NCBI GenBank assembly: GCA_036448795.1
Contig: JAZFXQ010000057.1
Location: 1 to 52,932 of the forward strand
Direction: 5' to 3'
DNA: 52,932 bases
Source of the DNA: Candidatus Margulisiibacteriota bacterium
Lineage (GTDB): Bacteria > Margulisbacteria > WOR-1 > O2-12-FULL-45-9
Shown: one piece after another, positions 19,181 to 50,411 of the stretch
How positions within the stretch are numbered: position 1 is the stretch's first letter
How the letters are laid out: every line of letters begins with the position of its first letter
Program-made: the position numbers and the translations under genes
Notes under the pieces: model-generated
Databases searched by the model: none
Told to the model about the DNA's origin: nothing
What the model saw: only the letters and a program-made list of their open reading frames with translations

Positions 19181-19208
19181 TTATCGAGTTAGGAAGCAGA
19201 AAACTTGC
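19181..19208 (-). promoter_or_regulatory. sigma28-like promoter motif, degenerate copy (site F)
   Basis: Reverse strand reads GCAAGTTT tctgcttcctaa CTCGATAA atattatgag. It has the same 8+12+8 geometry as the five TGAAATTT sites. Confidence 0.45.
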
Positions 19209-19233
19209 GTCGTAAATGCATGGCTGTTATAAT
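19205..19233 (+). promoter_or_regulatory. sigma70-type promoter of clpC with extended -10
   Basis: TTGCGT (19205-19210), a 17-nt spacer ending in TGt, then TATAAT (19228-19233). The SD GAGGA precedes ATG 19268. Confidence 0.55.
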
Positions 19234-19267
19234 TGTGGCGATGGCTTAAAATTGAGGATGATTAATT

Positions 19268-21763
19268 ATGGCGATGTTTGAAAGATTTACCGAGAGAGCG
19301 GTTAGAGTAATTATGGCGGCCCAGGAGGAAGCCAAGCGCTTGGGAACCCCCTTTGTGGGGGTGGAGCATCTTTTGTTAGGCATGATGCGCGAAGGGGAGC
19401 CGATCGTACTCCGGACTTTGGAGCATTTCAGGATCGACCCGGCTGCTCTCAAGGAACGCATCGAAGAAAAAATTGCGAAAATGCAGTCCCCCGGGAAAGT
19501 CGGGCCGGAGCTTCCCTTTAACACTCGAGTCAAAAAAGTTATCGAACTAGCCTGGGATGAGGCCCGGGGTTTGGGGCACAGCTATGTGGGTGTGGAACAT
19601 TTATTTTTGGGGATATTGAGAGAGGGAAGTGGAATAACCGGCGAAGTTTTGGGTGAGCTGGGAATTACCATCGCTTCAGCCAAGGACCAGATTGTGACTA
19701 TCCTGGGAGAGGTTGCGACCTTTCAAAAAAGGATGCCGCGGCCCACCCGCACCCCGGTCCTGGATGGTTTTAGTCGGGACTTGACCGTTCTGGCAAGAGG
19801 GAAAAAGCTTGATCCGGTGATCGGGCGGGCCAAAGAGATCGAAAGGGTAACCCAGATCCTTTCCCGTCGCAAAAAAAATAATCCAGTCTTGATTGGAGAG
19901 GCCGGAGTAGGGAAAACCGCTATCGTAGAGGGATTATCCCAGAGAATTGTAGCGGGAAACGTTCCGCCGCCTCTTTTAGGCAAAAGAGTGGTCACCTTAG
20001 ATCTGGGCCTGTTGATCGCGGGGACCAGATATCGGGGAGAGTTTGAGGAGAGAATGAAAAAAGTGATCGGTGAGGTAACCAAGGATGGGAATGTTATTCT
20101 TTTTATCGATGAGCTGCATACCCTCATCGGAGCAGGTGCGGCAGAAGGGGCCATGGATGCTGCAAACATTTTGAAGCCAGCGCTTGCCCGGGGTGAGCTT
20201 CAGTGCATCGGAGCCACCACCATCGATGAGTATCGGAAAAGGATCGAGTCTGATCCAGCGCTGGAACGCAGATTTCAATCGGTTATGGTAGAGGAACCAA
20301 CTGTACATGAGACCATTGAGATCTTAAAAGGACTGCGCGAACGCTATGAAGACTTTCACAAGGTCAAGATTACCGACGATTCTCTGGTTTCTGCAGCGCG
20401 GCTTTCTGCGCGTTACATTTCGGATCGGCACCTGCCGGATAAGGCCATTGATTTAATTGATGAGGCGGCCTCAAAAGTCATGCTGCAGTCTTCGGTTGCT
20501 CCGCCTGAGCTGGTTGAGATCACAAAACAGATTGAAAAAGTGAAGGGAGAAAAAGAAAAGGCGGTTGAAAACCAGGAGTTTGAACAGGCCGCTCAGCTCA
20601 GAGATAAAGAAGATGGCCTGCGCTTGCAGTATGAAGCTATTTCAAAAAAAATGACTGGGTTGACGCGTGAAGGATATCCCGAGGTAAATTCAGAAACCAT
20701 TGCCCAAGTGGTTTCCTCCTGGACCAGCGTTCCGGTAACACAACTCACCACAGAAGAGACCGAGCGGTTGCTCAAGATGGGGGAAGAGCTAAAGAGACGG
20801 GTGGTGGGCCAAGATGAGGGAATTTCGGTGGTTTCTAAATCTATTCGTCGGGCGCGAGCAGGGCTAAAAGATCCCAGACGGCCGATCGGGTCATTTATCT
20901 TCCTGGGTCCCTCTGGGGTTGGCAAAACCGAGTTGGGGAAGAGGTTGGCAGAGTTCTTGTTCGGAGATATAGATGCAGTGGTGCGCATTGACATGTCAGA
21001 ATACCTGGAGCAACACACTGTCTCCAGATTGATTGGTTCTCCTCCGGGCTATGTTGGCTTTGGTGAGGGGGGGCAGTTAACAGAACCCATCCGACGAAGA
21101 CCCCATTCGGTAGTGCTCTTTGATGAGATCGAGAAAGCCCATCAAAATGTGATGAATGTTCTGCTCCAGATCTTGGATGAAGGTCACATAACCGATGCCC
21201 AGGGGCGCTTAATTGATTTTAAGAACACGGTCATTATTATGACCAGCAATGTGGGGGCCGAGCTTATCCGCAAAGAGACCTCGATCGGCTTTGTGACCCG
21301 GGATGATGCCAAGGCTTCCTATGATAAAATGAAAGAAATAGTCCTGGATCAGCTAAACAAACAATTTCGGCCTGAATTTTTAAATCGTGTGGATGAGAAG
21401 ATCGTTTTTCGTCCGCTCTCCAAAGAGGATCTGGCGGCCATTGTGGATATCATGATAGGGGATATTAATACCCGCGTAGAAGAGAAAGGCCTCCATCTAA
21501 AGATAACCAAAAAGGTCAAAGAATTTTTGGTTGAAAAAGGCTATGACCCCAAACTCGGGGCAAGACCCTTGCGGAGAGCGATCGAGGAGCATGTTGAAGA
21601 TCCGCTTTCGGAAGATGTGCTTAAGGGCAAATTCGGTTATGGCAGCAAGATCAGCCTGAAGGTTGAAAAAGGTAAAATCGTTTTCAGCGGAACCAAGGGG
21701 AGAAAGTCTTCCAAATCCGAAACCTCCTCCAAAAAAGAAGAGCCCGCGATCAAAGGTGAGTAA
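19268..21763 (+). CDS. clpC: ATP-dependent Clp protease ATP-binding subunit ClpC
   Basis: Two Clp_N repeats (FTERAVRVIMAAQEEA.., VKKVIELAWDEA..), Walker A motifs GEAGVGKT and GPSGVGKT, and a UVR-like linker (ENQEFEQAAQLRDKE). 831 aa. Confidence 0.93.
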   Translation: MAMFERFTERAVRVIMAAQEEAKRLGTPFVGVEHLLLGMMREGEPIVLRTLEHFRIDPAALKERIEEKIAKMQSPGKVGPELPFNTRVKKVIELAWDEARGLGHSYVGVEHLFLGILREGSGITGEVLGELGITIASAKDQIVTILGEVATFQKRMPRPTRTPVLDGFSRDLTVLARGKKLDPVIGRAKEIERVTQILSRRKKNNPVLIGEAGVGKTAIVEGLSQRIVAGNVPPPLLGKRVVTLDLGLLIAGTRYRGEFEERMKKVIGEVTKDGNVILFIDELHTLIGAGAAEGAMDAANILKPALARGELQCIGATTIDEYRKRIESDPALERRFQSVMVEEPTVHETIEILKGLRERYEDFHKVKITDDSLVSAARLSARYISDRHLPDKAIDLIDEAASKVMLQSSVAPPELVEITKQIEKVKGEKEKAVENQEFEQAAQLRDKEDGLRLQYEAISKKMTGLTREGYPEVNSETIAQVVSSWTSVPVTQLTTEETERLLKMGEELKRRVVGQDEGISVVSKSIRRARAGLKDPRRPIGSFIFLGPSGVGKTELGKRLAEFLFGDIDAVVRIDMSEYLEQHTVSRLIGSPPGYVGFGEGGQLTEPIRRRPHSVVLFDEIEKAHQNVMNVLLQILDEGHITDAQGRLIDFKNTVIIMTSNVGAELIRKETSIGFVTRDDAKASYDKMKEIVLDQLNKQFRPEFLNRVDEKIVFRPLSKEDLAAIVDIMIGDINTRVEEKGLHLKITKKVKEFLVEKGYDPKLGARPLRRAIEEHVEDPLSEDVLKGKFGYGSKISLKVEKGKIVFSGTKGRKSSKSETSSKKEEPAIKGE

Positions 21764-23123
21764 ACAAGATATCCGCTACGTCTGTCAGTCCTGTGGTCAG
21801 GATTATCCGCGCTGGTTTGGGCAGTGCCAGTCCTGCGGGGAATGGAATAGCCTGGTAGAGGAACAAATTATAAAATCCATCCCGATAAAATCGGGACCAA
21901 ACAAATTACAAATTTCAAATATCCAATCTCCAATTTCGATAGTTGAGGTTAAATATGATGCTGAGGAAAGGAACGCCACTGGAATTGCGGAGGTGGACAG
22001 GGTTCTAGGTGGGGGTGTGGTTGGTGGGTCAGTTGTGTTGGTTGCCGGTGAGCCAGGGATCGGGAAATCGACCATGATGCTGCAGGCTGCGGAGGCTTTG
22101 AGTAAAAACGAGCTGGTTCTCTATGTGAGCGGGGAGGAATCGCCAAAGCAGATTAGACTTCGGGCCGAGAGATTGGGAACGATCTCCAAAAACCTGATGC
22201 TTTTTCCGGAGACCAATCTCTTTGCCATTGAAAAAGCAATCGGAGAAATCAAACCTCAATTTGTAGTGGTCGATTCGATTCAGGCCGTATACCGCGAAGA
22301 TATTCCATCTGCGCCTGGATCTGTTTCTCAAGTTCGGGAATGCGCAGGCTATTTGGTAAGGATCGCGAAATCAACGGGCATCCCGATCTTTATTGTCGGA
22401 CATGTTACCAAAGAAGGGAATATTGCCGGTCCACGGGTGCTGGAGCATGTAGTTGATACAGTTCTTTATTTTGAAGGAGAAAGGCACAAACAATATCGGA
22501 TCCTGCGAGTGACCAAAAACCGGTTCGGTTCTACCAATGAGGTCGGGATTTTTGAGATGAAGGATAAGGGCCTGGTCGAAGTTGCCAATCCTTCCGAGGT
22601 TTTTCTGTCCGAGCGGCCCAAGGATTCCTCTGGCTCCGTGGTAACTGCTGCTATTGAAGGAACACGTCCACTTTTGGTAGAAATCCAAGCTCTGGTTTCG
22701 CCAACTAAGATGGCTTATCCGATCCGTAGAACTACCGGAGTGGATTATAACCGGACCTCGATCATCATCGCAGTTTTGGAAAGACAATTAGGTTTGAAGC
22801 TTTCCGGAGCAGATGTTTATGTGAATGCAGCGGGAGGAGTCAGGGTTGCCGAACCAGCCATCGATCTGCCAATCGCCGTTGCGATTGCTTCCTGCTACAA
22901 AAATAAAGTTGTTGATCCACAGACCATTGCTGTTGGTGAAATTGGTTTAGCCGGAGAGATACGCTCGGTCAGTCAAATCGAGCAGCGGGTTAAGGAAGCG
23001 GAGAAGCTGGGTTTTAAGAGAATTATTGTTCCTCGAGCCAATTTGAAAGAGGTTGGTAAGGCAAAAATAAGCATAGAAGCAGTTTCCTCAGCTAGAGAAG
23101 CCTTCAGGGGCATTTTTGGATAG
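21756..23123 (+). CDS. radA: DNA repair protein RadA/Sms
   Basis: Zinc finger YVCQSCG..CQSCGEWNS, Walker A GEPGIGKST, KNRFG motif (VTKNRFGSTNE), and a Lon-like C-terminal domain. I chose GTG 21756 (8-nt overlap with clpC) because the longer ORF-track start at 21663 only adds low-complexity sequence inside clpC. Confidence 0.88.
   Translation: MSKQDIRYVCQSCGQDYPRWFGQCQSCGEWNSLVEEQIIKSIPIKSGPNKLQISNIQSPISIVEVKYDAEERNATGIAEVDRVLGGGVVGGSVVLVAGEPGIGKSTMMLQAAEALSKNELVLYVSGEESPKQIRLRAERLGTISKNLMLFPETNLFAIEKAIGEIKPQFVVVDSIQAVYREDIPSAPGSVSQVRECAGYLVRIAKSTGIPIFIVGHVTKEGNIAGPRVLEHVVDTVLYFEGERHKQYRILRVTKNRFGSTNEVGIFEMKDKGLVEVANPSEVFLSERPKDSSGSVVTAAIEGTRPLLVEIQALVSPTKMAYPIRRTTGVDYNRTSIIIAVLERQLGLKLSGADVYVNAAGGVRVAEPAIDLPIAVAIASCYKNKVVDPQTIAVGEIGLAGEIRSVSQIEQRVKEAEKLGFKRIIVPRANLKEVGKAKISIEAVSSAREAFRGIFG
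21903..21937 (+). repeat. degenerate heptanucleotide array inside the radA linker
   Basis: aaattac aaatttc aaatatc caatctc caatttc encodes QISNIQSPIS, which lies between the zinc finger and the ATPase domain. Confidence 0.5.
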
Positions 23124-23203
23124 CCTATAAATATTTCCTCGGGTCTGAGATCTTTCCTCTCGTGCTCCATTTATTATAGAAAGCTATGATTTTCCAAAAA
23201 TAA

Positions 23204-23231
23204 TGAAATTTTCGTATAAAATTGTCGATAA
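23204..23231 (+). promoter_or_regulatory. sigma28-like promoter motif (site C)
   Basis: TGAAATTT tcgtataaaatt GTCGATAA atatatgaagaggag. ATG 23274 lies 42 nt downstream and is preceded by AGGAGG. Confidence 0.6.
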
Positions 23232-23273
23232 ATATATGAAGAGGAGATTTAAGGTAAAAAGGAGGAATTTGAT

Positions 23274-23852
23274 ATGGGAAGCACAGTAACAATAGTTGGC
23301 AGAGAAATGTTATCAAGGATGAATATAAGACCAGGAAAAATTTTTTCTACAAGGTATAGAGGGCTAAAAAATATTGGAATTCGCTTGCCGTACACTGCTG
23401 GCAAATTGCCAGGGGAATCTAGGATTTTTGTTTTAGTTGGAGAAATGGTCTATAGAGGAGTTGGCAAGAAAAAGGCACAACTAGCTGAAATGCTAAACCC
23501 ATTAGCTAATCTTGATTTGTCATTAATCTATACATTCGATGAGGAAGGATCAGAAATAGGTCGGCTAGTTTTGGAAGCCGATTTTTTGAGAGAATTTGAT
23601 GATGTGAAGAGAATGCTGCAGAAGGTGCCTGGATTGGAGAAAAAGATTCTAGCTTGCTTTCCGGCAGAATCAGAGCCAATGAGAGAAGAATCAATATATT
23701 GGAAGTATGCCCCGATAGCAGATTCAGACGGTTCAGTTGCAGAAAAAGCTATGTTAATTGAAGTATTCCGCAGAGACAAATTAAATAACCTTGCGAAACA
23801 AATCGCCCAAGCAATTCAAGCGCTTCAACTTGAAATTATTGGAGCTAAGTAA
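23274..23852 (+). CDS. hypothetical protein (192 aa), no recognisable domain
   Basis: ORF with a strong SD (AAAGGAGG) in an AT-rich island, driven by motif site C. Confidence 0.55.
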   Translation: MGSTVTIVGREMLSRMNIRPGKIFSTRYRGLKNIGIRLPYTAGKLPGESRIFVLVGEMVYRGVGKKKAQLAEMLNPLANLDLSLIYTFDEEGSEIGRLVLEADFLREFDDVKRMLQKVPGLEKKILACFPAESEPMREESIYWKYAPIADSDGSVAEKAMLIEVFRRDKLNNLAKQIAQAIQALQLEIIGAK

Positions 23853-23883
23853 AATGTATTTCTCATATTGGACTTTGAGTTGC

Positions 23884-28824: not shown

Positions 28825-28827
28825 GTT

Positions 28828-29213: not shown

Positions 29214-30119
29214 TTACTTTTCGAGAACTAACCGGACTGGTGAAGGGAATGTATGATTCTTGCCTTTATATTTAAAACTGAGGAAATCAACATGAATATC
29301 TAGATAGTCAGCGTAGGCGGTGGTCGCGCTTTCCGAAATTGGCTCAACTTTTACTGGCCCTTTTGCCGGTAGAGCGATCTTGTTCTCGATCATATATTTG
29401 GCCAGCTCTAGTTTGAACTTGCTCACATTTCCTCTCTTAATAAGACCAAGCTGCCACGCTCTCTTTTTGCTTCCCTTTTCGCATATATTGGAATCGCGCC
29501 CATGATCCCTCCATGGTTTAACGCGAAGCCTCTTTGCTAAATTATACACATCCATATTAACGTATGGTCTTTTCGCTGCTCGTGAAAGCCAGGGGTGTTT
29601 TATTTTATCCGCCCATCCGATCTCCTCCCTGCTTTCCGTTTGCAATTCATTGATCTGTTCCGGGGTAAAGTACTCTGGATTTTTATCTTTGAAGGTCTCA
29701 CGTATTCCGTCGCGTTGAATTATAAGGGCTTCAGCAAAACGAACGGTTTTATCCTTATATTTAAAACCCACGAAAAGGAAAACCGCCCGGTTGCAAAAAA
29801 AGTCCTGTTGCCAATTTTTCGTATCGCTTTCTGAAAATGGCTCGATCTCTATGGTGCCCCTTTGGGAGATTTTGATCTTCTCGGCGAGCAGTGCCTGCGC
29901 TATTTCAAGTTTGATCTTGCTCCGATTTGTCCGCTCGAACGATGATAGTTTCTCCAGAAAGAGACCCTCTCCCCGTCTAAAATTTCGCCAATTTTTTATC
30001 CGGATTCTCTTTGCCAGATTATATACGTCCATATTGATGCCTTTTTTTAGCGCCATTTGAGAAAGGAAGGGGCGCCTTACTTTCTCTGCCAACCCCATTC
30101 TAGCTCCAGCTGTAACCAT
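29214..30119 (-). CDS. hypothetical protein with an internal two-fold duplication (301 aa)
   Basis: SD GGGGGA lies 8 nt before the ATG. The two halves share NMDVYNLAKR(I/L)R(I/V)K.WR, SK(I/F)KLE(I/L)A, (I/V)EP(F/I)SES and FKYK.K...F. Confidence 0.6.
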   Translation of the reverse strand: MVTAGARMGLAEKVRRPFLSQMALKKGINMDVYNLAKRIRIKNWRNFRRGEGLFLEKLSSFERTNRSKIKLEIAQALLAEKIKISQRGTIEIEPFSESDTKNWQQDFFCNRAVFLFVGFKYKDKTVRFAEALIIQRDGIRETFKDKNPEYFTPEQINELQTESREEIGWADKIKHPWLSRAAKRPYVNMDVYNLAKRLRVKPWRDHGRDSNICEKGSKKRAWQLGLIKRGNVSKFKLELAKYMIENKIALPAKGPVKVEPISESATTAYADYLDIHVDFLSFKYKGKNHTFPSPVRLVLEK

Positions 30120-30202
30120 TTTTTGTTCCCCCTTAATTTATATTTTAGTTTTTCAGATATCGACCTTCGTCAGCCTCTTTGGGCATCTGAGTTTCCAAAA
30201 TT

Positions 30203-30233
30203 TTAGGGAACGTACTCTCCGCACGTTCCCTAA
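30203..30233 (-). terminator. perfect 11-bp stem hairpin: terminator of the radical-SAM gene and/or attenuator in the leader of 29214-30119
   Basis: TTAGGGAACGT actctccgc ACGTTCCCTAA. On the - strand it is followed by AATTTTGG. It lies downstream of motif site E. Confidence 0.45.
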
Positions 30234-30275
30234 GTTTTTCCTTATTTGCGGAGAGCAAATGTCTCTCTATATGTA

Positions 30276-30303
30276 TTATCGTCACTTTTTGGAAGAAATT
30301 TCA
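30276..30303 (-). promoter_or_regulatory. sigma28-like promoter motif (site E)
   Basis: Reverse strand reads TGAAATTT cttccaaaaagt GACGATAA tacatatagagagac, 156 nt upstream of ATG 30119. Confidence 0.6.
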
Positions 30304-30317
30304 TATTTTGCAGAAAA

Positions 30318-41817: not shown

Positions 41818-42579
41818 ATGACAACCATCGGAGTGATCTATAAAAAGGAAGACAGCTTGATCGCGGGAACCGCGCAGCAGGTCATAAAAGAGCTCAAGAA
41901 AATGGGATATAAGCTCGATCTGGCAAGGGCCAGGTTTGTCTTAACTTTTGGGGGCGATGGAACCATTCTGCGCGCAGCCAGGATCCTGGCAAAAAGTAAG
42001 ACCCCCATCTTAGGGGTCCATCTGGGAGGCCTTGGGTTTTTGTCGGAGATCGAGCTGCATGAGCTTAGCGACGCCCTGGAGCGGATCAAGAAGGGCAAAT
42101 TTATTATTGATGAAAGAGCCATGCTCGAGGCCATGCTAGGCGGAAGAAAACTTATTGCCTTAAACGATATTGTAATCAGCAATAGCGGCATTGCGCGTGT
42201 GATAAAATTGGAGGTTAAGGGAGTGGCGGAGTACACTTCAGACGGCATAATCTTTTCAACCGCTACCGGCTCCACCGCCTACAATCTTTCTGCGGGTGGC
42301 CCGCTTCTTACCCCGGATTCACAAAGTATGGTCATCTCGGCTATCTCTCCGCACAGCATCAGTACTCGTCCGCTGGTGCTCGAAAAACCGGTTACCGCAG
42401 TATTGATCCGGGGGAAGGAGGCCATCCTAACTGCTGACGGTCAACACCTTGTCCCGCTGCATGAAACGCAAAAAATACGGATTTATAAATCAAAATTTAA
42501 GACCAGATTTATCCGTTTGAAGGAATATAATTTCTTTGAGAGGGTAAAGAATGTCTTTGGCTTTGGGCCCAGGACTTAA
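41818..42579 (+). CDS. nadK: NAD kinase
   Basis: FGGDGTILRAAR, GHLGFL-like (LGGLGFLSE) and STGSTAYNLSAGGP motifs. SD GGGAGG. Confidence 0.85.
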   Translation: MTTIGVIYKKEDSLIAGTAQQVIKELKKMGYKLDLARARFVLTFGGDGTILRAARILAKSKTPILGVHLGGLGFLSEIELHELSDALERIKKGKFIIDERAMLEAMLGGRKLIALNDIVISNSGIARVIKLEVKGVAEYTSDGIIFSTATGSTAYNLSAGGPLLTPDSQSMVISAISPHSISTRPLVLEKPVTAVLIRGKEAILTADGQHLVPLHETQKIRIYKSKFKTRFIRLKEYNFFERVKNVFGFGPRT

Positions 42580-42803
42580 TTCAGGAAGGAGCCGCTGTTG
42601 AGGGAGACTAATTTTGAGATGTCATCAATTAAAACAAAATAGACCGGATCAGATAAGTTCGGCGCTCCGGTTTTAGAGAAGATCGGGAAAAGTGTGACCT
42701 TGTGCATTTCTGAATTGATCAATTTCTTCAGGTATTTTTGAAGGGCAAACTTTTCCATGGCTTCAATTACTTTTGCGTTGTTCATGGTGTTCATCTTTTT
42801 CAC
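42576..42803 (-). CDS. small hypothetical protein (75 aa)
   Basis: Second ORF of a two-gene unit, 2 nt after the upstream stop. AT-rich, no recognisable domain. Its 3' end overlaps the nadK stop by 4 nt. Confidence 0.4.
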   Translation of the reverse strand: MKKMNTMNNAKVIEAMEKFALQKYLKKLINSEMHKVTLFPIFSKTGAPNLSDPVYFVLIDDISKLVSLNSGSFLN

Positions 42804-42805
42804 CT

Positions 42806-43003
42806 CTAGAAGTAGGATTTGTTTCCGGCTTCACGCTTTAGAAACATGTCTGCAAAAACTCTTATGAATTGGCCAGAAGTCTTGACCAAGTTCTTTTCAA
42901 TATGCAATGCATCTCGTATATGAGCCCGCCTGGTCTTTCCCGGCTGATTGATTAGCGCTACATCAAAATTTCTTCTATCTGCATTTTCGCGATTCATATT
43001 CAT
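42806..43003 (-). CDS. small hypothetical protein (65 aa)
   Basis: MNMNRENADRRNFDVALINQPGKTRRAHIRDAL.. lies 14 nt downstream of motif site A. GAGAGGGA precedes the ATGs at 43003 and 42997. Confidence 0.45.
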   Translation of the reverse strand: MNMNRENADRRNFDVALINQPGKTRRAHIRDALHIEKNLVKTSGQFIRVFADMFLKREAGNKSYF

Positions 43004-43017
43004 TCCCTCTCATATAT

Positions 43018-43045
43018 ATATCGACAGATTTTCACGAAAATTTCA
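43018..43045 (-). promoter_or_regulatory. sigma28-like promoter motif (site A)
   Basis: Reverse strand reads TGAAATTT tcgtgaaaatct GTCGATAT atatatgagaggga ATG. Confidence 0.6.
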
Positions 43046-43099
43046 CCCGATTTCCATTTTTGGCAGTTTGACGCTAAAAAACATATCTAAAAAACTTTT

Positions 43100-44323
43100 C
43101 TATAATAGGTTAACATTTACCGAGGCATTTTCGGTTGAATGTTCAATAAGGAATTTTTCAATATGGCTTTGTACTTTCGCCGTCAGCACAGTGTCAAGAT
43201 GTCCAAGGTTTTCAAATTGCAGAAATACTTTGTTGCCTCTTTGCTTGCCGATGTATCCTTTTCCTTTAATAGAGGTTAATTCTTTAGGGTGTTGCTTATG
43301 TCGGGTAGCATCGAAAGCCGACTTCACTGTTTCAGGAGGAGCAAGTCCGTCTCTTTCTCCAGCGATAAAAAACATGGGGATTTCTGAAAAACCCATGTTA
43401 TAACGATAGCTGTATCGTCTTTTTGTCCTTTCTAGAACCCTTTTATAGGCCTTAGTATATTCTTTTATATTCGAATCATCTAAATCCTCTATATCTTCAA
43501 ATTCAGCCCAGCCGGGGTTGGATCTAAAATCTTCTGAATATGCCCAATCTTTAAATTGATCCAGCAACCCTCTCGGGATACCTTCAAGGACCTCAGAAAA
43601 TATTTTTTCGACAACTTTGTCATTCATATTTTCGGTATTATTCCCTAAAGTTTTTAGGCTTTTCTTTTTGATCTTTAAGGGTAATTTAGATGCATAACCT
43701 AAATAGTTTACCAGGGGTCTGTAGAGGAAAGCCCATTTATAAGCGCGCAGTAATTTCTTGGATAATTGCTCAGGATGCAGAAAGAAAGGACTGCAAATAG
43801 CGGTGATAGATTTTAATTTATTCAACATGAAATTCCTGGCAGAAGCCATATAGGCATAGATCATCATTGATCCCATACTAAAACCTGCCCAGTGGACTTG
43901 ATCGTGTCCGGTTACTTTTCTGACAAAATCTATGAATGCTGGAACATGATTGAAGAGAAGATTGTCAAAATCCAATTTTTTCTTTCCTTCGCTTAGCAGC
44001 TCAGCCGAAAAAACATTAAAATCCGCTAGGGCCAATTTGTTTTTTAAAGATCGGTTTGTTTCAAGCCCCATTCGGCCATCGTCCCCTAGCGCAAAAATTT
44101 CTCGATTGTGAGCTAAACCCGAACAGAGAATGACAGGCTCGCGATTAAGTTCGAGCGATTTCATTGTCCAGGTTTGAGTAATTTTGAAGGATAAATTGCC
44201 TGGGGTCTTTACTAAATATTCGCATTCATGTAATGATTGGGCCTGTCTTCCTGCTTTGGATTTGGCCAAAGAAGGCGTCGGTTGAAACTGGGATGTAAGT
44301 GTAATGCTTCTAAACCAGCGCAT
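43100..44323 (-). CDS. alpha/beta-fold hydrolase (lipase/esterase-like)
   Basis: GxSxG nucleophile elbow (HWAGFSMGSMM), a late HLD-type segment (NLGHLD), SD GAAGGGG. 407 aa, AT-rich. Confidence 0.65.
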   Translation of the reverse strand: MRWFRSITLTSQFQPTPSLAKSKAGRQAQSLHECEYLVKTPGNLSFKITQTWTMKSLELNREPVILCSGLAHNREIFALGDDGRMGLETNRSLKNKLALADFNVFSAELLSEGKKKLDFDNLLFNHVPAFIDFVRKVTGHDQVHWAGFSMGSMMIYAYMASARNFMLNKLKSITAICSPFFLHPEQLSKKLLRAYKWAFLYRPLVNYLGYASKLPLKIKKKSLKTLGNNTENMNDKVVEKIFSEVLEGIPRGLLDQFKDWAYSEDFRSNPGWAEFEDIEDLDDSNIKEYTKAYKRVLERTKRRYSYRYNMGFSEIPMFFIAGERDGLAPPETVKSAFDATRHKQHPKELTSIKGKGYIGKQRGNKVFLQFENLGHLDTVLTAKVQSHIEKFLIEHSTENASVNVNLL

Positions 44324-44386
44324 AGAGTTGCCCCTTCTACTATTTATCTGATTTTGGATTGAATAATTTCAGATGATTTGGGAGGC

Positions 44387-45898
44387 CTATTTTGTAATAC
44401 TGTGGAGAATATATGCCGCTTCGGCCCGGGAGAAATCCTTATTAGGCTCAAGGCTGTCTCCGGGAATATAATCTAACAATCCGGCTTTCTTCGCGGCAAT
44501 AATATTTGGGGCAGCCCAGTGGCTGGCAGGAAGATCAATGAAGGGAGATTCTTCTCTGATCGGCTTTAGGTTTGCAAATCGGGATAGGATAAGCACCCCT
44601 TCAACCCGGTTCAAGGTTTTTGAGGGTTGAAAAGTCCCATCCGGATATCCGCCGACTAATTTGATGTCTACGGCGGCCTTAATATAAGGTGCGGCCCAGT
44701 GTTTGACCGGAAGATCATTAAAAATTTGCTCTTTAGGTTTTGCAACCTTTATCTTTTTAGCTTTAATAAGTAGGGTGCTAAGCTCAGCTCGGGTTAAAGT
44801 CTTTTCTGGTTTGAAAGTCCCGTCTGGATATCCGCCGATGATTCCTTTTTCAGCTAGGGTTTCTATGGCTTCTTTAGCCCAATACCCTTGGGGCACATCC
44901 GAAAATCCAGGAGGAGCTTTAACTTTCTTGGGTGGAGCTTTTATTTTCTTTTCTGGCAGAAGATAGGAAAACGTGAAGTAATGGGTAGAATTTGCTGAAA
45001 GAAGGGTGTCTATGTAGTAGGCATAATCAAATGAAAATCCATTGGAGTTCAGACCGATTCCCAATCCCAGATTGGTAGTTGCTTCATTTTGGTTTATGGC
45101 AATTTGATCTAGCCCCCCTCGAATAGCGAGTAGCTCTGAATATCTCCATTCGACTCCGGCATGGAGTAGAAGGGGGGAGTTGCGGGCATAATCCAGGTCT
45201 CCCGTGATCAGTAAGTCATTTCGAGGAGTGTAAGCGCAACCGATCTTGGTATTGAAAGGGATTCCTTCTTTTTCTCCCGTACCCCAGGTAATTGAAGCAA
45301 TGCTTGCGGGCAGGGTGTTCTGCTGGGATACCCCGAGACTGAAATCTTTTCTCGGTTTCCAGAGAAGACCGAGGTCCATGTCAAAGCCGGAGGCAGTGCT
45401 TCCGGAAGAGCCGCTAAAGCCTTTGCTGAAAAGCTTCAGGGTGGCGCCGGCTGCCAGATTTTCCATGATCTCTTTTCCATAAACCAGGGAAATAACGCTG
45501 TTTGAATAGTCAAATGAAGTCCCGCTTGCCACGATTCGGCTGTCTGCATCCCGGGTAGCAATTTGAATCCCTGAGGTTAATCCACCAAGATAGGATAGTC
45601 CAAATGTTCCCCAGGGAGCCTGATATCCCCCGCCCAGCAGGGTGTAAGTAATCTCTCCCTCAAGCAGGGTCGTGTACATACTGGTTGCGCCCCAGCCCTT
45701 GAAATCAGCGGCATTAGCCGGGTTTATGAACATGGAGTTGATATTACCCGCAAGGCTGGCTGCGGTGCGGCCCATGGCCAGGGACCTTGCACCTACCCCC
45801 AGTTTCATGGGATCCAGCGAAGCCGCATGACAAATCCCAAAACCAAATGACAGACTTAAAATAATCGACAAAATCCAAATTGTAAGTTTAGTTATCAT
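44387..45898 (-). CDS. outer-membrane beta-barrel-like protein with three C-terminal SLH domains (paralog of 14198-15832)
   Basis: Signal peptide ..GICHA|A. GARSLAMGRTAASLAGNINSMFINPANAA is followed by alternating strands. Three SLH repeats follow (FSDVPQGYWAKEAIE.., FNDLPVKHWAAPYIKAA.., FIDLPASHWAAPNII..). Confidence 0.75.
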   Translation of the reverse strand: MITKLTIWILSIILSLSFGFGICHAASLDPMKLGVGARSLAMGRTAASLAGNINSMFINPANAADFKGWGATSMYTTLLEGEITYTLLGGGYQAPWGTFGLSYLGGLTSGIQIATRDADSRIVASGTSFDYSNSVISLVYGKEIMENLAAGATLKLFSKGFSGSSGSTASGFDMDLGLLWKPRKDFSLGVSQQNTLPASIASITWGTGEKEGIPFNTKIGCAYTPRNDLLITGDLDYARNSPLLLHAGVEWRYSELLAIRGGLDQIAINQNEATTNLGLGIGLNSNGFSFDYAYYIDTLLSANSTHYFTFSYLLPEKKIKAPPKKVKAPPGFSDVPQGYWAKEAIETLAEKGIIGGYPDGTFKPEKTLTRAELSTLLIKAKKIKVAKPKEQIFNDLPVKHWAAPYIKAAVDIKLVGGYPDGTFQPSKTLNRVEGVLILSRFANLKPIREESPFIDLPASHWAAPNIIAAKKAGLLDYIPGDSLEPNKDFSRAEAAYILHSITK

Positions 45899-45956
45899 TT
45901 TCTGTTATCTCTATTCTCCAACACCCGCTATAGTGTGTCAAGTATTTGGGGAAATA

Positions 45957-45965
45957 TGATATAAT
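45957..45965 (+). promoter_or_regulatory. extended -10 promoter, leaderless candidate
   Basis: TGaTATAAT lies 6 nt before ATG 45972 with no SD. Confidence 0.45.
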
Positions 45966-45971
45966 CAAAGC

Positions 45972-46997
45972 ATGGAGCGTTTTCTTAAAAGCCGCTACAA
46001 GATCGGTGAAAAAATCTCTGAAAATCCCTTTAGTGTGACCTATAAAGGGGCTTTCCTGGGCACCCATAAGCCGCTTGTCATAAAAATTTATAAGAGAGGG
46101 ACCCTGAATTCTGGCTTGATCAACCGCATGAAGCAGAAAGTCAGAGAGCTTTCCCTCATAAGTCATCATGGGATTGCAAAGTTGATCGACGGTGATTACG
46201 GCTGGCAGGGGTTTTACTACGTTCGGGAGTATATTAAAGGGGAAAGTCTTCAGCACATATTGGAAAGCAGTCAAAATATCGGGATTGAGAAGGCGGTTAA
46301 GATCGCTGAAGAAGTTTGTCATGCACTTGAATTTGCGCATAACAAGGGAATTATCCACGGGGCGATTAAACCTAACAATATTTTTATTGACTCACATGGG
46401 CTGGTGAGGGTAGCCGATTTTGTGATTGAGGGAGAAATCAAGGAGGCCATGCCGCAAAAGATCTTATCCCTCATGGATGATGGCAGGTATGCATCCCCTG
46501 AGGAATTGGCCGGAAAACCTGCTTCGGTTACCTCGGATGTCTACGCTTTGGGAATAATTCTCTATGAACTGGCCGTGAACCGCTGCGGTTTGGTTGAGGA
46601 AGGGCTCTCAAGCGGCTTGATAAAACTAAGGAACAAATCGTTATTGAATCAAGAAGAGCTGGCCAGCCTGCCGAGGTATCTCCAGGATGTTGTCAGCAGA
46701 GCCCTGCAAAGCGACCCGCAGCTGCGTTTCCCTTCAATGACTGAATTCCGTGAAAGCCTGGAAAAGAAAAATTTGGTCCTGAAGCGGCTTCCGCAGGAAG
46801 AATACATTACCCTTTTTGAAAACACGGTTACTCAATACGGCGGCGAGGAGCTTGATAAGGAAAGCGAGTCTCTAGAGGACTTAGGTCGGGTGAAAATTTC
46901 CTGGGGAAAAGAGAAACACAGGAATTGGATTTTGGCTTTGATCCTTGGAATAGCTTTTCTTTCTGGTATCTTATACGTATTTTTGTTCGCTTGGTAA
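45972..46997 (+). CDS. Hanks-type Ser/Thr kinase-fold protein with degenerate catalytic motifs (predicted pseudokinase) and a C-terminal TM helix
   Basis: Kinase fold markers are VIKIYK (Lys), SPE and the DFV segment. The catalytic loop reads IIHGAIKPNN instead of HRDxKxxN, and the Gly-rich loop reads ISENPFSVTY. C-terminal TM helix ILALILGIAFLSGILYVFLF. Confidence 0.78.
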   Translation: MERFLKSRYKIGEKISENPFSVTYKGAFLGTHKPLVIKIYKRGTLNSGLINRMKQKVRELSLISHHGIAKLIDGDYGWQGFYYVREYIKGESLQHILESSQNIGIEKAVKIAEEVCHALEFAHNKGIIHGAIKPNNIFIDSHGLVRVADFVIEGEIKEAMPQKILSLMDDGRYASPEELAGKPASVTSDVYALGIILYELAVNRCGLVEEGLSSGLIKLRNKSLLNQEELASLPRYLQDVVSRALQSDPQLRFPSMTEFRESLEKKNLVLKRLPQEEYITLFENTVTQYGGEELDKESESLEDLGRVKISWGKEKHRNWILALILGIAFLSGILYVFLFAW

Positions 46998-47011
46998 AAA
47001 CTTATCGGACT

Positions 47012-47674
47012 ATGCTTATTTCATATATTAGCTTTTATCTTATTTTTATTATCTCGATTTCCATCCTGATCGGTCTTCTTGTGTTGAGGTTAAATCTACC
47101 CAAGCCGCGCATGGTCATATCGATAATCGTCGCCATTATTATTTCGCCGCTCATCATAGGCTATCTTTATATTACCTATTTTACTTCTATTCCTGAAGCA
47201 GTTGTCCCGGACATGAGGGGTTTGCCTTTGGAAAAGGCTTTTGAGAAGCTTGAATCCCTGAAGCTTGAGGGGACCTTTGCCGGGACCGTATTTGATATGA
47301 AATATCCCGAGGGAAGCGTGGTGAATCAGCGGCCGGAAGGAGGGAGGATGGTTAAGATTGGAAGGGTGGTCAGGCTGGTGACCAGCTCCGGGAAAAGGAG
47401 GGTTATGGTTCCCAACCTTCTGGGCCGGCTTGCTGTTCAAGCTGAGGCTGTGCTGGCAGCCAAGGGTTTGCAATTGGGGAAAGTTGAACAGGATTTTGTG
47501 CCAGAGCTGGATTCGGGTATAATACTTACACAAAACCCCTTGCCGGGGGAAGAAGCGAAAGTTGGTTCTTATGTTAACATTACGGTTTCTGCCACAGAAG
47601 AACCAGAAATAATATTGGAAGCGACTGAGGAGGCAGAAGGCGCAGAAGAAGGAGGTTTTAAGTTTTGGTGGTAA
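47012..47674 (+). CDS. membrane protein with two extracytoplasmic PASTA domains
   Basis: Start at ATG 47012, 14 nt after the kinase stop. Two TM helices precede the PASTA units VPDMRGLPLEKAFEKL..VVNQRPEGG..VRLVTS and VPNLLGRLAVQAEAVL..ILTQNPLPG..VNITVS. Confidence 0.75.
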   Translation: MLISYISFYLIFIISISILIGLLVLRLNLPKPRMVISIIVAIIISPLIIGYLYITYFTSIPEAVVPDMRGLPLEKAFEKLESLKLEGTFAGTVFDMKYPEGSVVNQRPEGGRMVKIGRVVRLVTSSGKRRVMVPNLLGRLAVQAEAVLAAKGLQLGKVEQDFVPELDSGIILTQNPLPGEEAKVGSYVNITVSATEEPEIILEATEEAEGAEEGGFKFWW

Positions 47675-48339
47675 AATCTTCTAATAAACCCGGGATAAAG
47701 GTTGCCCCTTCCATTCTTTCAGCAGATTTTATAAATTTGGGGGCCGAAATAAAAAAAGTTGGAAAAGCCGGCGCGGACATGATCCATATCGATGTTATGG
47801 ATGGCCACTTTGTGCCAAATATTAGCATTGGGCCTCTGGTAGTGAAAGCTGCCAGGAAAGCCACCCAATTGCCGCTGGATGTGCACCTGATGATTGAAAA
47901 TCCAGATCGCTATATTCCGGACTTTGCCAAGGCCGGAGCGGATATAATTACCATACAGGCTGAGGCTTCAAAGAACCTGGATGAAGACATCGAGCTCATT
48001 AATCAAAACAATGTAAAGCCGGGGGTAGTGGTCAATCCGGATACCCCGATTGATTCCATCTTTCATGTTTTGGACAAGGTGGTTATGGTATTGATCATGT
48101 CGGTCAACCCGGGTTTTGAAGCCCAGAAGTTTATGCCGGAAGTTCTGCCAAAGATCAAGAAATTGAGATCAGAAATAGGAAAGAGGAAACTCAAGGTAGA
48201 CATCGAAGTCGACGGTGGCATCAATCTGGAAACTGCGCCAAAGGTGGTCTCCGCCGGAGCAAATGTGCTGGTGGCGGGGTCGGCTATATTTCACGCAAAA
48301 GACTACCAGAATGTCATCAAGAAATTAAAATCTTTGTAG
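47665..48339 (+). CDS. rpe: ribulose-phosphate 3-epimerase
   Basis: APSILSADF, HIDVMDGHFVPN and VDGGIN motifs. Non-ATG start (TTG 47665 or GTG 47668) after the SD GAAGGAGG. Confidence 0.88.
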   Translation: MVVKSSNKPGIKVAPSILSADFINLGAEIKKVGKAGADMIHIDVMDGHFVPNISIGPLVVKAARKATQLPLDVHLMIENPDRYIPDFAKAGADIITIQAEASKNLDEDIELINQNNVKPGVVVNPDTPIDSIFHVLDKVVMVLIMSVNPGFEAQKFMPEVLPKIKKLRSEIGKRKLKVDIEVDGGINLETAPKVVSAGANVLVAGSAIFHAKDYQNVIKKLKSL

Positions 48340-48358
48340 CTCCCTTTTTAAAAACACC

Positions 48359-48386
48359 TGAAATTTCACATTTTTTCTGCGGATAA
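48359..48386 (+). promoter_or_regulatory. sigma28-like promoter motif (site D)
   Basis: TGAAATTT cacattttttct GCGGATAA tatattagagagca. ATG 48425 lies 38 nt downstream. Confidence 0.6.
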
Positions 48387-48424
48387 TATATTAGAGAGCA
48401 CGGAAAGTTTTTGAGGAAAAAATC

Positions 48425-49222
48425 ATGTTTATAATGAGAAATAGTGTGCGTGCGGCCGGACCCAGGATTGCTTCCGGTAAAGAGATGAACGCAGATCAAT
48501 TATGCACTGCCCTGAAAAAAATACACAGGGGGGCGTCGCCCTGGATCTTTAACGCAACCGTTAGAACCCAGACCTCGCCTTTGCAACTCCGTCGGCTTGA
48601 CACTCGATCCTGCTATTGGATTGCCTCGGCCATGCCGATTAAGTTTAGCAGGTTTCTTGAATTCTTATCCGGCCTCAAAGGGAAACTCTTCAAGGCCTGG
48701 CTGATCTATGCGGGAAAAGAAAAGATCGAACACGAAGTTACTCTTACAAGTTCAGGGGTAAGCCTGGACGGGAGCCCTCACCAAACCAAAGGGCTGCCAG
48801 AGGGACTCGAGCTTGTTCGCCAGCAAGCGCCTGCTCTGATCAAAGGACAGACTTATAAGATCGGCATGAATGCGGGAGCGATTATTTTAGGCGAGCCGAG
48901 CGAGCATGGGCTGGGAATCGAAGCAAAATTACAGAAGATAGGGGTGAGCTCTTCATCATCCGGGTCGGAATCCAATCATTTTATGGCGGGAGTCACCGAT
49001 CTTGAGCAATTTCAAAGAGCTTTGTCGCCTCTGCTTGAGAAATCTGACTTCTTAGGACTGGAATTCGTTCAGCCCGCTTTATCGGTGGTGGTCAGAGAGG
49101 CCCGCATTTATCATGATCGGGTGAGAAAAAGTTTTTCTTGCGAATGTATTTTAGAGCCGGTGGCGCCTGAGATCGAGCGCAATCTGTTCAATGCGCTCTT
49201 TGATTCTGATACCAGGTCATAA
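48425..49222 (+). CDS. hypothetical protein (265 aa), no recognisable domain
   Basis: ORF downstream of motif site D. It is convergent with, and overlaps by 35 nt, the 3' end of 49188-50360. Confidence 0.5.
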   Translation: MFIMRNSVRAAGPRIASGKEMNADQLCTALKKIHRGASPWIFNATVRTQTSPLQLRRLDTRSCYWIASAMPIKFSRFLEFLSGLKGKLFKAWLIYAGKEKIEHEVTLTSSGVSLDGSPHQTKGLPEGLELVRQQAPALIKGQTYKIGMNAGAIILGEPSEHGLGIEAKLQKIGVSSSSSGSESNHFMAGVTDLEQFQRALSPLLEKSDFLGLEFVQPALSVVVREARIYHDRVRKSFSCECILEPVAPEIERNLFNALFDSDTRS

Positions 49223-50360
49223 GCTCAAATCTGATCGGAATATTTTCTAGGCAGTGTCCCGCCTCAGCCATTCTATTCTCCAAAGAAATAATCTCCCGGT
49301 TAATTTCGGTTCGGGTCAGATCTTTAAGGATTTTGCCGGAAGCGGAGATCGGGGTAGAGGAAAGGAGAAGACGGCGAAGAAGCTGCCGGATTGTCATTTG
49401 ATGCCCGTAAATATTTTCAAAATCAAATAATCGTTTGTGGGTCACAATGCGAATTTCGTAATTACCTTCTTTAATATCCTTTTGGTAAAGGCTGGGAAGA
49501 TCGAAGTTTTCAGGGTTTAAAAGAACGTCTTTCTGGGAGAGGGTTTTACGGTTTTTCCCCTTATATTGACTGCCCAATCCCAGGAACTGGAATATGAAAT
49601 CACCGAAACCGTAGCCATTATCGCCTTTTATTTCAAATATGATCAAGCGGCCGCTGTCCCGGTCCCGGCCGATAATGTCAAAAAACTCGATCTGGTTTAA
49701 GCTCCCCTTTTGAGAGAGAGTGGCATTGGCGTTCACAATTTCTATGTTTGTGTTTTGACCGATGTAAAGAATGGCTCTCAGCTCAGTGATCGCCCCTACG
49801 ATGTCGAAGTTGGTTATGTGGTTTGCAAGCAATCGATTGAGATATTTCTTAAAAAGGCCGTTGGTATTTTCCTCGGATAAAATCTTCAGGGCGTGAATGG
49901 CGTCCTGTAGCCAATCCTCGGTGAATTTTCCGCCTAATTTGTTCTGGATCCTCTGCTCAAAAGAGAGGGGTTGGGATGCAGCTGGAGAGGCGTTGTCATA
50001 AATGTCTAATATGCCTTGTAAGGGGCCTTGCGCCTTCTTTGCTAATTTATTTATTCTGCGATTATTTATTTGTATGCCTTGAACTTTATGCTCTAATATT
50101 TTTTCCAAATTATCTATGTGTTTGGGGAGCTTACTATGATCAAAAAATCTTGCGGGTAATGAATCTTTATCTAAGATTGCTGTTAATTTGTCAAATTTAG
50201 GTGCAAGTATTTTATGCGTTCCGAAAAGTTCAAGACCTTTAAGCGCAATGGTTTCCAGTCTGTCTCTTCGGATTGTATGGGGAGAGATAGCAGGCACGCT
50301 GCGCAATTTTAGCTGCGGGGTTGAATTTAATTTTCTGGCACCATTTAAGGATCCGGCCAT
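49188..50360 (-). CDS. hypothetical protein (390 aa) with a PD-(D/E)xK-like nuclease motif
   Basis: Start at ATG 50360 (MAGSLNG..), with GGAGGAG 8 nt upstream; the ORF-track start at 50393 is TTG and lies inside the promoter motif. The core IEFFDIIGRDRDSGRLIIFEIKG fits D-x(n)-E-x-K. Confidence 0.55.
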   Translation of the reverse strand: MAGSLNGARKLNSTPQLKLRSVPAISPHTIRRDRLETIALKGLELFGTHKILAPKFDKLTAILDKDSLPARFFDHSKLPKHIDNLEKILEHKVQGIQINNRRINKLAKKAQGPLQGILDIYDNASPAASQPLSFEQRIQNKLGGKFTEDWLQDAIHALKILSEENTNGLFKKYLNRLLANHITNFDIVGAITELRAILYIGQNTNIEIVNANATLSQKGSLNQIEFFDIIGRDRDSGRLIIFEIKGDNGYGFGDFIFQFLGLGSQYKGKNRKTLSQKDVLLNPENFDLPSLYQKDIKEGNYEIRIVTHKRLFDFENIYGHQMTIRQLLRRLLLSSTPISASGKILKDLTRTEINREIISLENRMAEAGHCLENIPIRFELMTWYQNQRAH

Positions 50361-50383
50361 CTTGTGACTCCTCCTGCATATAT

Positions 50384-50411
50384 ATATCGTCAAATTTCGC
50401 TCGAAATTTCA
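50384..50411 (-). promoter_or_regulatory. sigma28-like promoter motif (site B)
   Basis: Reverse strand reads TGAAATTT cgagcgaaattt GACGATAT atatatgcaggaggag, 23 nt before ATG 50360. Confidence 0.6.

Follow-up and report, generated by a model that had tools for sequence, protein, structure and literature searches.

A contig of 52,932 nucleotides (nt) from a Candidatus Margulisiibacteriota bacterium (JAZFXQ010000057.1, assembly GCA_036448795.1), referred to here in its whole length as the window, carries five exact copies of a composite motif, TGAAATTT-N12-GNNGATAW, each of which points at the start of a downstream gene. The motif is conserved across the phylum, and it is probable that its copies are promoters read by RNA polymerase carrying a sigma factor of the FliA/WhiG family (sigma-28, group 3). 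Such a sigma-28-type regulon had been proposed from a first reading of the letters (hereafter the sequence-only reading), and it is now supported by the promoter-like placement of the sites, by the geometry of their elements, by the different promoters associated with housekeeping genes and with an extracytoplasmic function (ECF) sigma factor, and by the presence of a FliA/WhiG-type sigma gene in the lineage. The content of the regulon is non-flagellar.

Margulisiibacteriota and Saganbacteria form an uncultured sister lineage of Cyanobacteria. To our knowledge they have so far been known only from metabolic reconstruction, and the main Saganbacteria paper makes no mention of sigma factors, promoters, flagella or motility. 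One highly conserved promoter marks, throughout the genomes of a group that cannot be grown, what would be a co-regulated set of genes that probably act together: a small two-gene operon (famA-famB), a small RNA (sRNA), kinases, surface glycoside hydrolases and many orphans. It also offers a route from sequence to the definition of a regulon, and it raises the question of what role is played by a flagellar-type sigma factor that is encoded with a truncated FliG and has no recognisable filament or motor targets.

The motif in the window and across the lineage

A pattern search of the window for the composite motif returned sites 23204(+), 48359(+), 43045(-), 50411(-) and 30303(-), five exact matches where dinucleotide-preserving shuffles predict 0.00 (0 of 100 shuffles contained any). 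The core of the second block is CGATA(A/T) in four of the five and GGATAA in the fifth. On the 3' side of each lies ATATAT, TATATT or TACATA and then a GAGAG-like stretch rich in purines. Both features, the A/T run and GAGAG, had been pointed out before, and they are real and conserved in relatives. The sequence-only reading had listed six sites, and all six sequences are indeed present at the positions and on the strands it gave, as are the distances from motif to start of the open reading frame (ORF): 42 nt for 23204(+), 38 for 48359(+), 14 for 43045(-), 23 for 50411(-), 156 for 30303(-) and 18 for 19208(-). Five of these carry the exact composite motif and are upheld. The sixth, 19208(-), is not counted, because its score of -4.8 bits in the weight matrix described below is at chance level: a window of this size should hold about 113 sites that score as well by chance alone. 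The 8-mer TGAAATTT, whose supposed rarity had been used as an argument, turned out not to be rare by itself (11 copies versus 8.1 expected). It is the composite motif, not the 8-mer, that makes the sites significant, and for the composite motif of the five sites the conclusion that they are not due to chance stands.

About 5 of the 26 or so transcription units in the window (about 20%) carry the promoter. A possible weak addition, 44371(-), is intergenic and co-oriented with the gene for a 407-amino-acid (aa) alpha/beta hydrolase (43100-44323, -), ending 14 nt before its ATG, and its CAGATAA variant of the -10 block is also present in two related loci, L010 and L233. This unproven site is a better candidate for an extra member than 19208(-).

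What had been described as six local copies is in fact a phylum-wide phenomenon. A strict 34-nt pattern, TGAAATTT-N12-GNCGATAW-ATATAT, for which well under ten chance occurrences were estimated in the 596 Gb searched, was found in at least 115 stretches in GTDB (one genome per species) and at least 120 in metagenomes, or at least 235 together. The titles of 80 genome loci listed name Saganbacteria, Margulisiibacteriota or WOR-1 in 47 cases and Falkowbacteria in one, and they are uninformative in 32; several of the 32 loci share the same sRNA or small-protein operon. In the Falkowbacteria-titled locus, L081 (MFFY01000004.1, Candidatus Falkowbacteria), motif and famA gene have the same sequences as in L114, which suggests a mis-binned contig or a recent transfer. 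The motif is lineage-wide and occurs almost only in Candidatus Margulisiibacteriota/Saganbacteria, the taxon of the window itself.

A weight matrix was built from 117 distinct strict sites. Among positions that the search pattern left free, these sites conserve an A-tract over the 7 nt that precede the -35 block, a G or C directly before the T of TGAAATTT, an AAA in the middle of the spacer, a T before the fixed G (position -16, 85%) and a T that closes the -10 block (79%). The base following ATATAT, taken as +1, is A in 56% and G in 44%, with one pyrimidine among the 117, and a purine-rich run comes next. When 903 kb of related DNA was scanned with the matrix, 185 sites scored above 15 bits, while a shuffle gave 1. 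All but 66 of the 185 are strict matches; the 66 have the relaxed core TGAAAT(T/A)T-N14-CGATA(A/T), in which CGATA(A/T) is the most conserved block. The density is about one site per 10-14 kb near known sites and zero around the sigma gene discussed below, and because it is so uneven the number of sites per genome can be given only as an order of magnitude.

Promoter placement and geometry

In all of the related DNA that was fetched (about 1.6 Mb), 376 sites score above 15 bits. Only 19 of them (5%) lie inside long ORFs, although such ORFs account for 84% of the bases (p ~1e-251), and 95% are intergenic. Where the downstream boundary is within 400 nt, it is the start of a co-oriented gene in 275 cases and the end of an opposite-strand gene in 25 (p ~2e-54); 92% of the scorable sites aim at a gene start. 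This is the comparison that the sequence-only reading had suggested for telling a promoter from a repeat element, and the repeat-element objection is answered by it, since the sites are intergenic and biased toward gene starts.

Leaders are frequently very short. The distance from the predicted +1 to the start codon is 25 nt or less, often 10-25 nt, in 118 of 294 sites with a callable start, and in such leaders the purine-rich run doubles as a Shine-Dalgarno sequence. The run also accompanies long leaders and sites without any ORF, which makes it a feature of the promoter itself or of the initial transcript.

Three of the window promoters have been kept at orthologous positions in L233, a syntenic metagenome relative, whose proteins are 41-75% identical to those of the window. 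The promoter of t390 (gene names are those of Table 1) and its counterpart at 12481(-) do not differ in either the -35 or the -10 element, in the 12 nt between them or in the A/T run, while the proteins behind them are 53% identical. The famA promoter is also kept. At the weaker t265 promoter, the -10 element is GCGGATAA and the discriminator TATATT, and the orthologous site in L233, at 10409(+), has a similarly deviant -10 element, GCAGATAA.

The sigma-28 promoter of fliC in Pseudomonas aeruginosa, as seen in an open-complex structure, reads (-36)TCTAAAG(-30)/(-15)GCCGATAA(-8), with GC as the extended -10 (PMC12784957). When the CGATAW of the motif is set at -13 to -8, the AAA of TGAAATTT falls at -33 to -31, the fixed G at -15 and conserved purines at -1/+1, and both AAA and CGATAA then occupy the same registers as in the fliC promoter. 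This superposition bears out the earlier observation of a sigma-28-like -10 element at exact N15 spacing, GAAA standing in place of TAAA. The G at -15 is present in all five window sites but was fixed by the search pattern there, and it is variable in the relaxed sites.

Taken together, these features describe a predicted promoter that would consist, from its upstream end, of an A-tract at about -43 to -37 that looks like an UP element; (G)TGAAATTT as the -35 element; 12 nt of spacer, in which AAA is often found at -21 to -19; an extended -10, T(-16)G(-15), joined to the core CGATA(A/T); and an AT-rich discriminator (ATATAT) leading to a purine +1, where transcripts would begin. The purine-rich initial transcribed region would, in many genes, at the same time be the ribosome-binding site of the short leader.

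Other genes of the same genomes have promoters of a different kind. A tRNA-Met gene has TTGACT-N17-TATAAT, several other tRNA genes have TGnTAnAAT, and the flagellar operon of a metagenome-assembled genome (MAG), JAYEOW01, is preceded by TTGACA-N17-TATAAT. The CGATAT of the motif agrees with TATAAT at 2 of 6 positions, which does not qualify it as a sigma-70 element.

One further strict site, L133:1597-1630(+), is found at the 3' end of codY in a Firmicute-like contig where codY is followed by flgB and flgC. In Bacillus subtilis, the sigma-D-dependent PD-3 promoter lies in the codY 3'/flgB region. As a positive control, the L133 site was set aside because a terminator-like hairpin follows it and because it may be a chance match in a large collection.

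The sigma gene and the competing explanations

A metagenome contig that bears the motif, L120, encodes a 236-aa sigma factor most similar to B. subtilis SigD and Escherichia coli FliA (the SigD and FliA sequences were used as probes only). Its best NCBIfam match is TIGR02479 FliA_WhiG (E 8.6e-39, model positions 2-224 of 224), by which it ranks as a divergent member of the FliA/WhiG family or as a sister to that family. Of 414 homologues found, the best 120 are 65-97% identical; several of these are named by NCBI as RNA polymerase sigma 28 subunit SigD/FliA/WhiG [Candidatus Saganbacteria bacterium], and other homologues are named as sigma-70 family (Margulisiibacteriota) or as hypothetical protein (WOR-1).

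In L120, flgB, flgC, fliE, fliF, fliG, fliH, fliI and fliJ come after the sigma gene in the same orientation, and next to fliJ lie two motif sites, each driving an orphan gene. The fullest order seen is flgF/G-flgA-flgH-flgI-(~90-110 aa)-sigma-flgB-flgC-fliE-fliF-fliG-fliH-fliI-fliJ, and further contigs with the sigma gene keep that order as far as each reaches. One of them, JAYEOW010000055.1 (L246), belongs to the same MAG (MAG019) as L045, L049 and L072, which together hold three strict and several relaxed sites. The group-3 sigma that the sequence-only reading had called for does exist in the lineage (L120, JAYEOW01), but it was not found for the window's own genome. Its statement that no recognisable flagellar gene is driven by the motif holds, whereas genes for the flagellar basal body are present in the lineage. 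The 55.8 kb centred on sigma genes, which include flagellar and housekeeping genes, contain no motif site that scores above 12 bits; this fits early flagellar genes that are independent of sigma-28.

Given that the sigma gene sits in a basal-body operon, of which at least one copy has a consensus sigma-70 promoter, a hierarchy can be proposed. In this model, sigma-70 would transcribe the basal-body genes together with FliA, and FliA would in turn transcribe a large second tier. This tier would comprise five of the roughly 26 units of the window and, across the phylum, famA-famB, an sRNA of about 65 nt, Ser/Thr kinases, glycoside hydrolases of families GH16 and GH26, SLH-domain proteins and above all poorly conserved proteins without recognisable domains.

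The fliG gene of the basal-body operons is short, encoding 154-172 aa in ten contigs, with fliH directly after it. Pfam scans of three copies detected FliG_N and part of FliG_M and no FliG_C, the torque-generating domain, which contacts the stator where flagella rotate. Only the basal-body clusters and the Firmicute-like L133 showed a rod/hook N-terminal motif.

Several observations weigh against assigning the motif to the FliA-like sigma. The L120 protein scores 133.6 bits with TIGR02479, below the curated cut-off of 189.6. No FliA-like sigma was found in the window or in 7 kb of extra contig, and none of seven sigma homologues that were looked up lay in GCA_044240365.1, an assembly with a contig that overlaps the window. 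The genomes were sampled only in part, which leaves room for another group-3 sigma. With respect to the promoter itself, the C(-14) of the sigma-28 extended -10 is not conserved (A 40%, T 32%, C 23%), and the -35 element differs from the classical TAAAG by G for T at -34 and T for G at -30, that is, at 2 of the 7 positions of TCTAAAG. Furthermore, the expected targets did not appear: flagellin, hook, hook-associated, motor and chemotaxis families are absent among the 25 best-represented families listed in each of the Pfam summaries for the 226 driven proteins (see below), and probes for flagellin, MotA and FliP found nothing in the roughly 1.6 Mb around the sites. Finally, the motif can be written as TGAAAT-N16-CGAT, which resembles TGAAAC-N16-CGTA, the consensus of SigW-type ECF sigma factors.

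This last resemblance leads to the first of the competing explanations, namely that a different alternative sigma, either SigW-type ECF (group 4) or another of group 3, reads the motif. An ECF sigma does exist in the lineage (in L099), the classical late flagellar genes are not seen behind the motif, and the pairing of the FliA-like sigma with the motif is itself a predicted one. Nonetheless, this explanation is unlikely. The -35 block has AAAT rather than the AAC of ECF promoters, the -10 block is CGAT, and a conserved TG precedes it; an extended -10 of the form T(-16)G(-15) implies sigma region 3, and since ECF sigmas have no region 3, it argues against them. When 0.9 Mb of GTDB loci was probed with FliA, SigD, RpoD and RpoE, the only sigma found was the L099 protein, an ECF sigma. 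It was rejected as the cognate factor because it has its own promoter, GGAAC-N-GTCTAA, and no motif lies upstream of it. Moreover, the registers of CGATA(A/T) and AAA are those of a structurally characterised sigma-28 promoter, and the one group-3 sigma found across roughly 1.6 Mb belongs to the FliA type, shows high conservation within the lineage and co-occurs with the motif.

It might instead be supposed that the two blocks are the operator of a lineage-specific transcription factor lying over an ordinary promoter. Their information content is unusually high, with the spacer AAA, the A-tract and ATATAT going beyond the needs of most sigma factors, and the spacer of the t390 promoter is the same in the window and in L233. 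However, the blocks form no palindrome and no direct repeat, a -10 of the sigma-70 kind does not fit in any register, their position is fixed relative to sRNA 5' ends and start codons, and they coincide base for base with sigma-28 elements, so that an operator is considered very improbable. A dispersed repeat or the remnant of a mobile element, like a miniature inverted-repeat transposable element (MITE) or a repetitive extragenic palindromic (REP) sequence, would account for many near-identical copies per genome, but the conserved length is only about 45 bp, the 12-nt spacer is variable and the flanks are unrelated. Terminal inverted repeats or target duplications were not apparent in the aligned sites, as judged by eye without a repeat search. 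Together with the placement described above and the retention of orthologous positions, these properties make a repeat exceedingly doubtful. Lastly, a housekeeping promoter for a divergent primary sigma, as in Bacteroidota, would be compatible with the fifth or so of window transcription units that carry the motif, but it is effectively refuted by the canonical promoters of tRNA genes and of the flagellar operon, by the lack of the motif at the window's clpC, radA, smc and plsX and by the 55.8 kb without a site.

Genes and RNAs behind the promoter

A total of 226 proteins encoded behind strict or relaxed sites were scanned with Pfam, in two summaries that list the 25 best-represented of 34 and of 42 families. 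Few of them match any domain. Among the families listed are Ser/Thr kinases (6), GH16 (5), SLH (5), GH26 (4) and FGE-sulfatase (4), along with PKD, ADP-ribosylglycohydrolase, HEAT and single others. When about 100 driven proteins from genome loci were clustered at E 1e-4, 72 were singletons. The first 40 residues of driven proteins contain less Asp and Glu than those of other proteins from the same loci (6.3% versus 10.4%, p 3e-7); they are richer in Ser, Thr, Pro, Asn, Gln and Gly (p 4e-10) and in Arg and Pro, and a hydrophobic stretch like that of a signal peptide is rare. These N-termini are probably disordered.

Two families recur, famA (61-64 aa) and famB (69-75 aa), and they form a conserved operon that is also in the window. 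Across the phylum, more than 20 loci have this promoter in front of a famA orthologue. Behind strict sites, famA recurs in 11 GTDB loci and in further metagenome loci, and famB orthologues (50-75% identical) come directly after famA in more than 20 loci. A homologue search with famA returned only 5 proteins. Ten famA and famB proteins compared with Pfam at E<=10 gave no match to FlgM, FlgN or any other family.

At least 18 distinct sites precede, instead of an ORF, a conserved RNA, 59-73 nt long, whose first base is the predicted +1. At its 3' end is a hairpin in which the loop, GCCUGUU, never varies and 7 of the 9 stem pairs show compensatory changes, with a U-run behind it, and its conserved, C/U-rich 5' end, AGGAAGCCAUACCUUUCACC, resembles an anti-Shine-Dalgarno sequence. 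A covariance model found 16 copies in GTDB loci and none in the window, and the RNA matches no Rfam family. Judged from its conserved sequence and compensatory stem, this sRNA is a new family whose genes would run from promoter to terminator. An Rfam scan of the window and 18 loci found no known RNA behind the motif; the sole matches were unrelated tmRNA genes.

The targets in the window are, as had been noted, proteins without recognisable domains: the seven downstream proteins have no match in Pfam, NCBIfam or PADLOC, and PADLOC and PDB sequence searches of the window targets came back empty. The AT-rich setting described for them is real as well, with 41.6% G+C in the target genes versus 46.6% in the rest of the window. 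The t192 promoter, which is intergenic and flanked by the radA stop codon (23123) and the ATG of t192 (23274), shows the full order of A-tract, TGAAATTT, N12, GTCGATAA, ATATAT and purine-rich start, with the predicted +1 near 23238-23239; only 3 relatives of t192 were found at E<=0.001 among 1.84 billion cluster representatives. The t390 promoter occupies most of a 78-bp divergent intergenic region shared with ribD, and t390 has only 3 relatives among 5.8 billion proteins. An AlphaFold2 model of t390 has a mean predicted local distance difference test (pLDDT) score of 70.6 with residues 1-24 disordered; compared with the PDB by Foldseek, it has no match at E<0.3, and PD-(D/E)xK nucleases appear only among matches with E>0.3. 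The conserved D228...E243-x-K245 of t390 is a weak hint of a PD-(D/E)xK nuclease fold. In t301, MDVYNLAKR[IL]R[IV]K.WR opens each half of the translation, near residues 30 and 187. The leader of t301 has a minimum free energy of -44.1 kcal/mol, compared with -26.0 +/- 3.6 for shuffled sequences (z = -5.1), and an 11-bp hairpin with AAUUUU behind it; its possible roles include attenuation and giving rise to a leader-derived sRNA.

A driven gene in L120 deserves mention. It lies beside the flagellar cluster (L120:712-1809(+)), and its 365-aa product has weak matches, both below the curated cut-offs, to the N-terminal nucleotidyltransferase domain of SidM, a Legionella effector (E 0.0015), and to NTP_transf_2 (E 0.007).

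These findings have led to a more speculative proposal, which is regarded as rather unlikely. Here the flagellar sigma would be a master switch for fast-evolving, lineage-specific proteins that are exported by a non-rotating, flagellum-derived type III apparatus. Such export fits the short FliG, without FliG_C in the three copies scanned, and the fact that no flagellin, hook-associated or motor gene was seen among the families listed for the 226 driven genes or in about 1.6 Mb around the sites, and it fits the acid-poor, polar N-termini that are rarely like signal peptides and the disordered N-terminus of the t390 model. On this export reading, famA and famB could be a FlgM-like checkpoint or a chaperone pair.

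The system can be compared with known sigma-28 regulons. It resembles the class 3 sigma-28/FliA promoters of E. coli, Salmonella and P. aeruginosa and the sigma-D promoters of B. subtilis (TAAA-N15-GCCGATAA/T) in the core -10, AAA and spacing and, in the sites that match the search pattern, in G(-15), and it is also like them in having a FliA-type sigma gene among flagellar genes and an upstream tier that would be driven by sigma-70. It is unlike them in that the -35 element is GTGAAATTT instead of TCTAAAG(TTT), that C(-14) is not conserved, that an AT-rich discriminator, a purine-rich start and an upstream A-tract are conserved, and that flagellin, hook-associated, motor or chemotaxis proteins are not among the families listed for the driven genes. 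Sigma-28 has tens of sites in the 4.6-Mb genome of E. coli, and the density around known sites here is high by comparison. By their sequence the promoters belong with those dependent on sigma-28, of which they would be a lineage-specific variant in sequence (GTGAAATTT, TG at -16/-15, ATATAT, purine start), in scale and in content.

FliA-family sigmas that serve non-flagellar genes have been described. Campylobacter Fed proteins and the RNAs CjNC1/CjNC4, sigma-28-dependent sRNAs of E. coli and FliA-dependent virulence traits of Legionella are examples of non-flagellar members of sigma-28 regulons. Sigma-28 is also described as driving sRNAs and non-flagellar proteins alongside motility (PMC4626219; PMC10578931). 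In Campylobacter, E. coli and Legionella, such members are a minority, whereas here no classical late member is found among the families listed for 226 driven genes. The regulon of Chlamydia trachomatis sigma-28 consists of two late genes, hctB and tsp (PMC12282069), compared with tens to more than 100 transcription units per genome extrapolated here. Chlamydia sigma-28 and Streptomyces WhiG, the latter acting in sporulation, are both presented as FliA-family sigmas for non-flagellar genes (PMC12282069; PMC12871210). In Chlamydia and Streptomyces, the sigma gene has no adjoining basal-body operon, whereas here it lies inside one.

An analogy may also be drawn with HrpL of Pseudomonas syringae, an ECF sigma whose hrp box, GGAACC-N15/16-CCACNNA, marks a large, strain-specific regulon of proteins with acid-poor, polar N-termini. 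In both cases, one alternative-sigma promoter would mark fast-evolving, unrelated proteins with such N-termini. The analogy concerns the mode of working and implies no membership in that regulon type; unlike the HrpL case, the sigma considered here is not ECF, and secretion of the proteins is only hypothesised.

Table 1. Coordinates of promoters, target genes and RNAs in the window and of features in related loci
Position	Strand	Feature	Remark
19181..19208	-	Claimed degenerate site GCAAGTTT-N12-CTCGATAA, upstream of 64-aa ORF	Unsupported as member
23197..23243	+	Predicted sigma-28-type promoter of t192	Exact motif, 45.0 bits
23274..23852	+	t192, 192-aa orphan	No Pfam, NCBIfam, PADLOC or PDB match
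29214..30119	-	t301, 301-aa orphan with internal duplication	No family or PDB match
30120..30269	-	Structured 150-nt leader, promoter to t301 start codon	No Rfam family
30264..30310	-	Predicted sigma-28-type promoter of t301	Exact motif, 18.3 bits; discriminator TACATA
42576..42803	-	famB, 72-75-aa small protein, second gene of operon	No Pfam match
42806..43003	-	famA, 63-65-aa small protein	Motifs NYDV..I..PGK..R and GQF..VFADMFLKRE
43006..43052	-	Predicted sigma-28-type promoter of famA-famB operon	Exact strict motif, 47.9 bits
44332..44378	-	Candidate weak extra promoter, site 44371(-), TGAAATTA-N12-TCAGATAA	7.4 bits
48352..48398	+	Predicted weaker sigma-28-type promoter of t265	Exact motif, 14.3 bits
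48425..49222	+	t265, 265-aa orphan	No family or PDB match; 41%-identical orthologue in L233
49188..50360	-	t390, 390-aa orphan	NCBI: hypothetical protein V3T21_02445 [Candidatus Margulisiibacteriota bacterium]
50372..50418	-	Predicted sigma-28-type promoter of t390	Exact strict motif, 49.0 bits
L052:2158-2218	+	sRNA copy	
L009:4340-4403	-	sRNA copy	
L159:2375-2436	-	sRNA copy	
L075:3919-3985 and 4059-4123	-	sRNA tandem pair	
L239:13226-13723		Short FliG copy	
L120:4465-4980	-	Short FliG copy	
L241:7051-7563		Short FliG copy	
L246:7847-8311		Short FliG copy	

With respect to gene arrangement, t265(+) and t390(-) are convergent and their 3' ends overlap by 35 nt (49188-49222); the convergent overlap is kept in L233, where it measures 23 nt (11267-11289). 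The gene content of the window is that of an ordinary chromosome, including etf, acyl-CoA dehydrogenase, plsX, smc, clpC, radA, rnc and dihydroorotase genes, and further encodes a Ser/Thr kinase with PASTA domains and ribD. Coordinate arithmetic shows that the window (1-1607) reaches about 1.6 kb past one end of an overlapping public contig of 58,174 bp, JAZHBW012005129.1 (GCA_044240365.1), which for its part runs 6.8 kb past the other end of the window; the two are therefore different records, the window being probably the MAG copy. Near the end of the window (51535-52812, +), precomputed Pfam matches identify a 425-aa protein with HupF/HypC and radical SAM domains; on the extension given by that contig, its gene has as neighbours a response regulator and a cluster that resembles those for hydrogenase or formate dehydrogenase.

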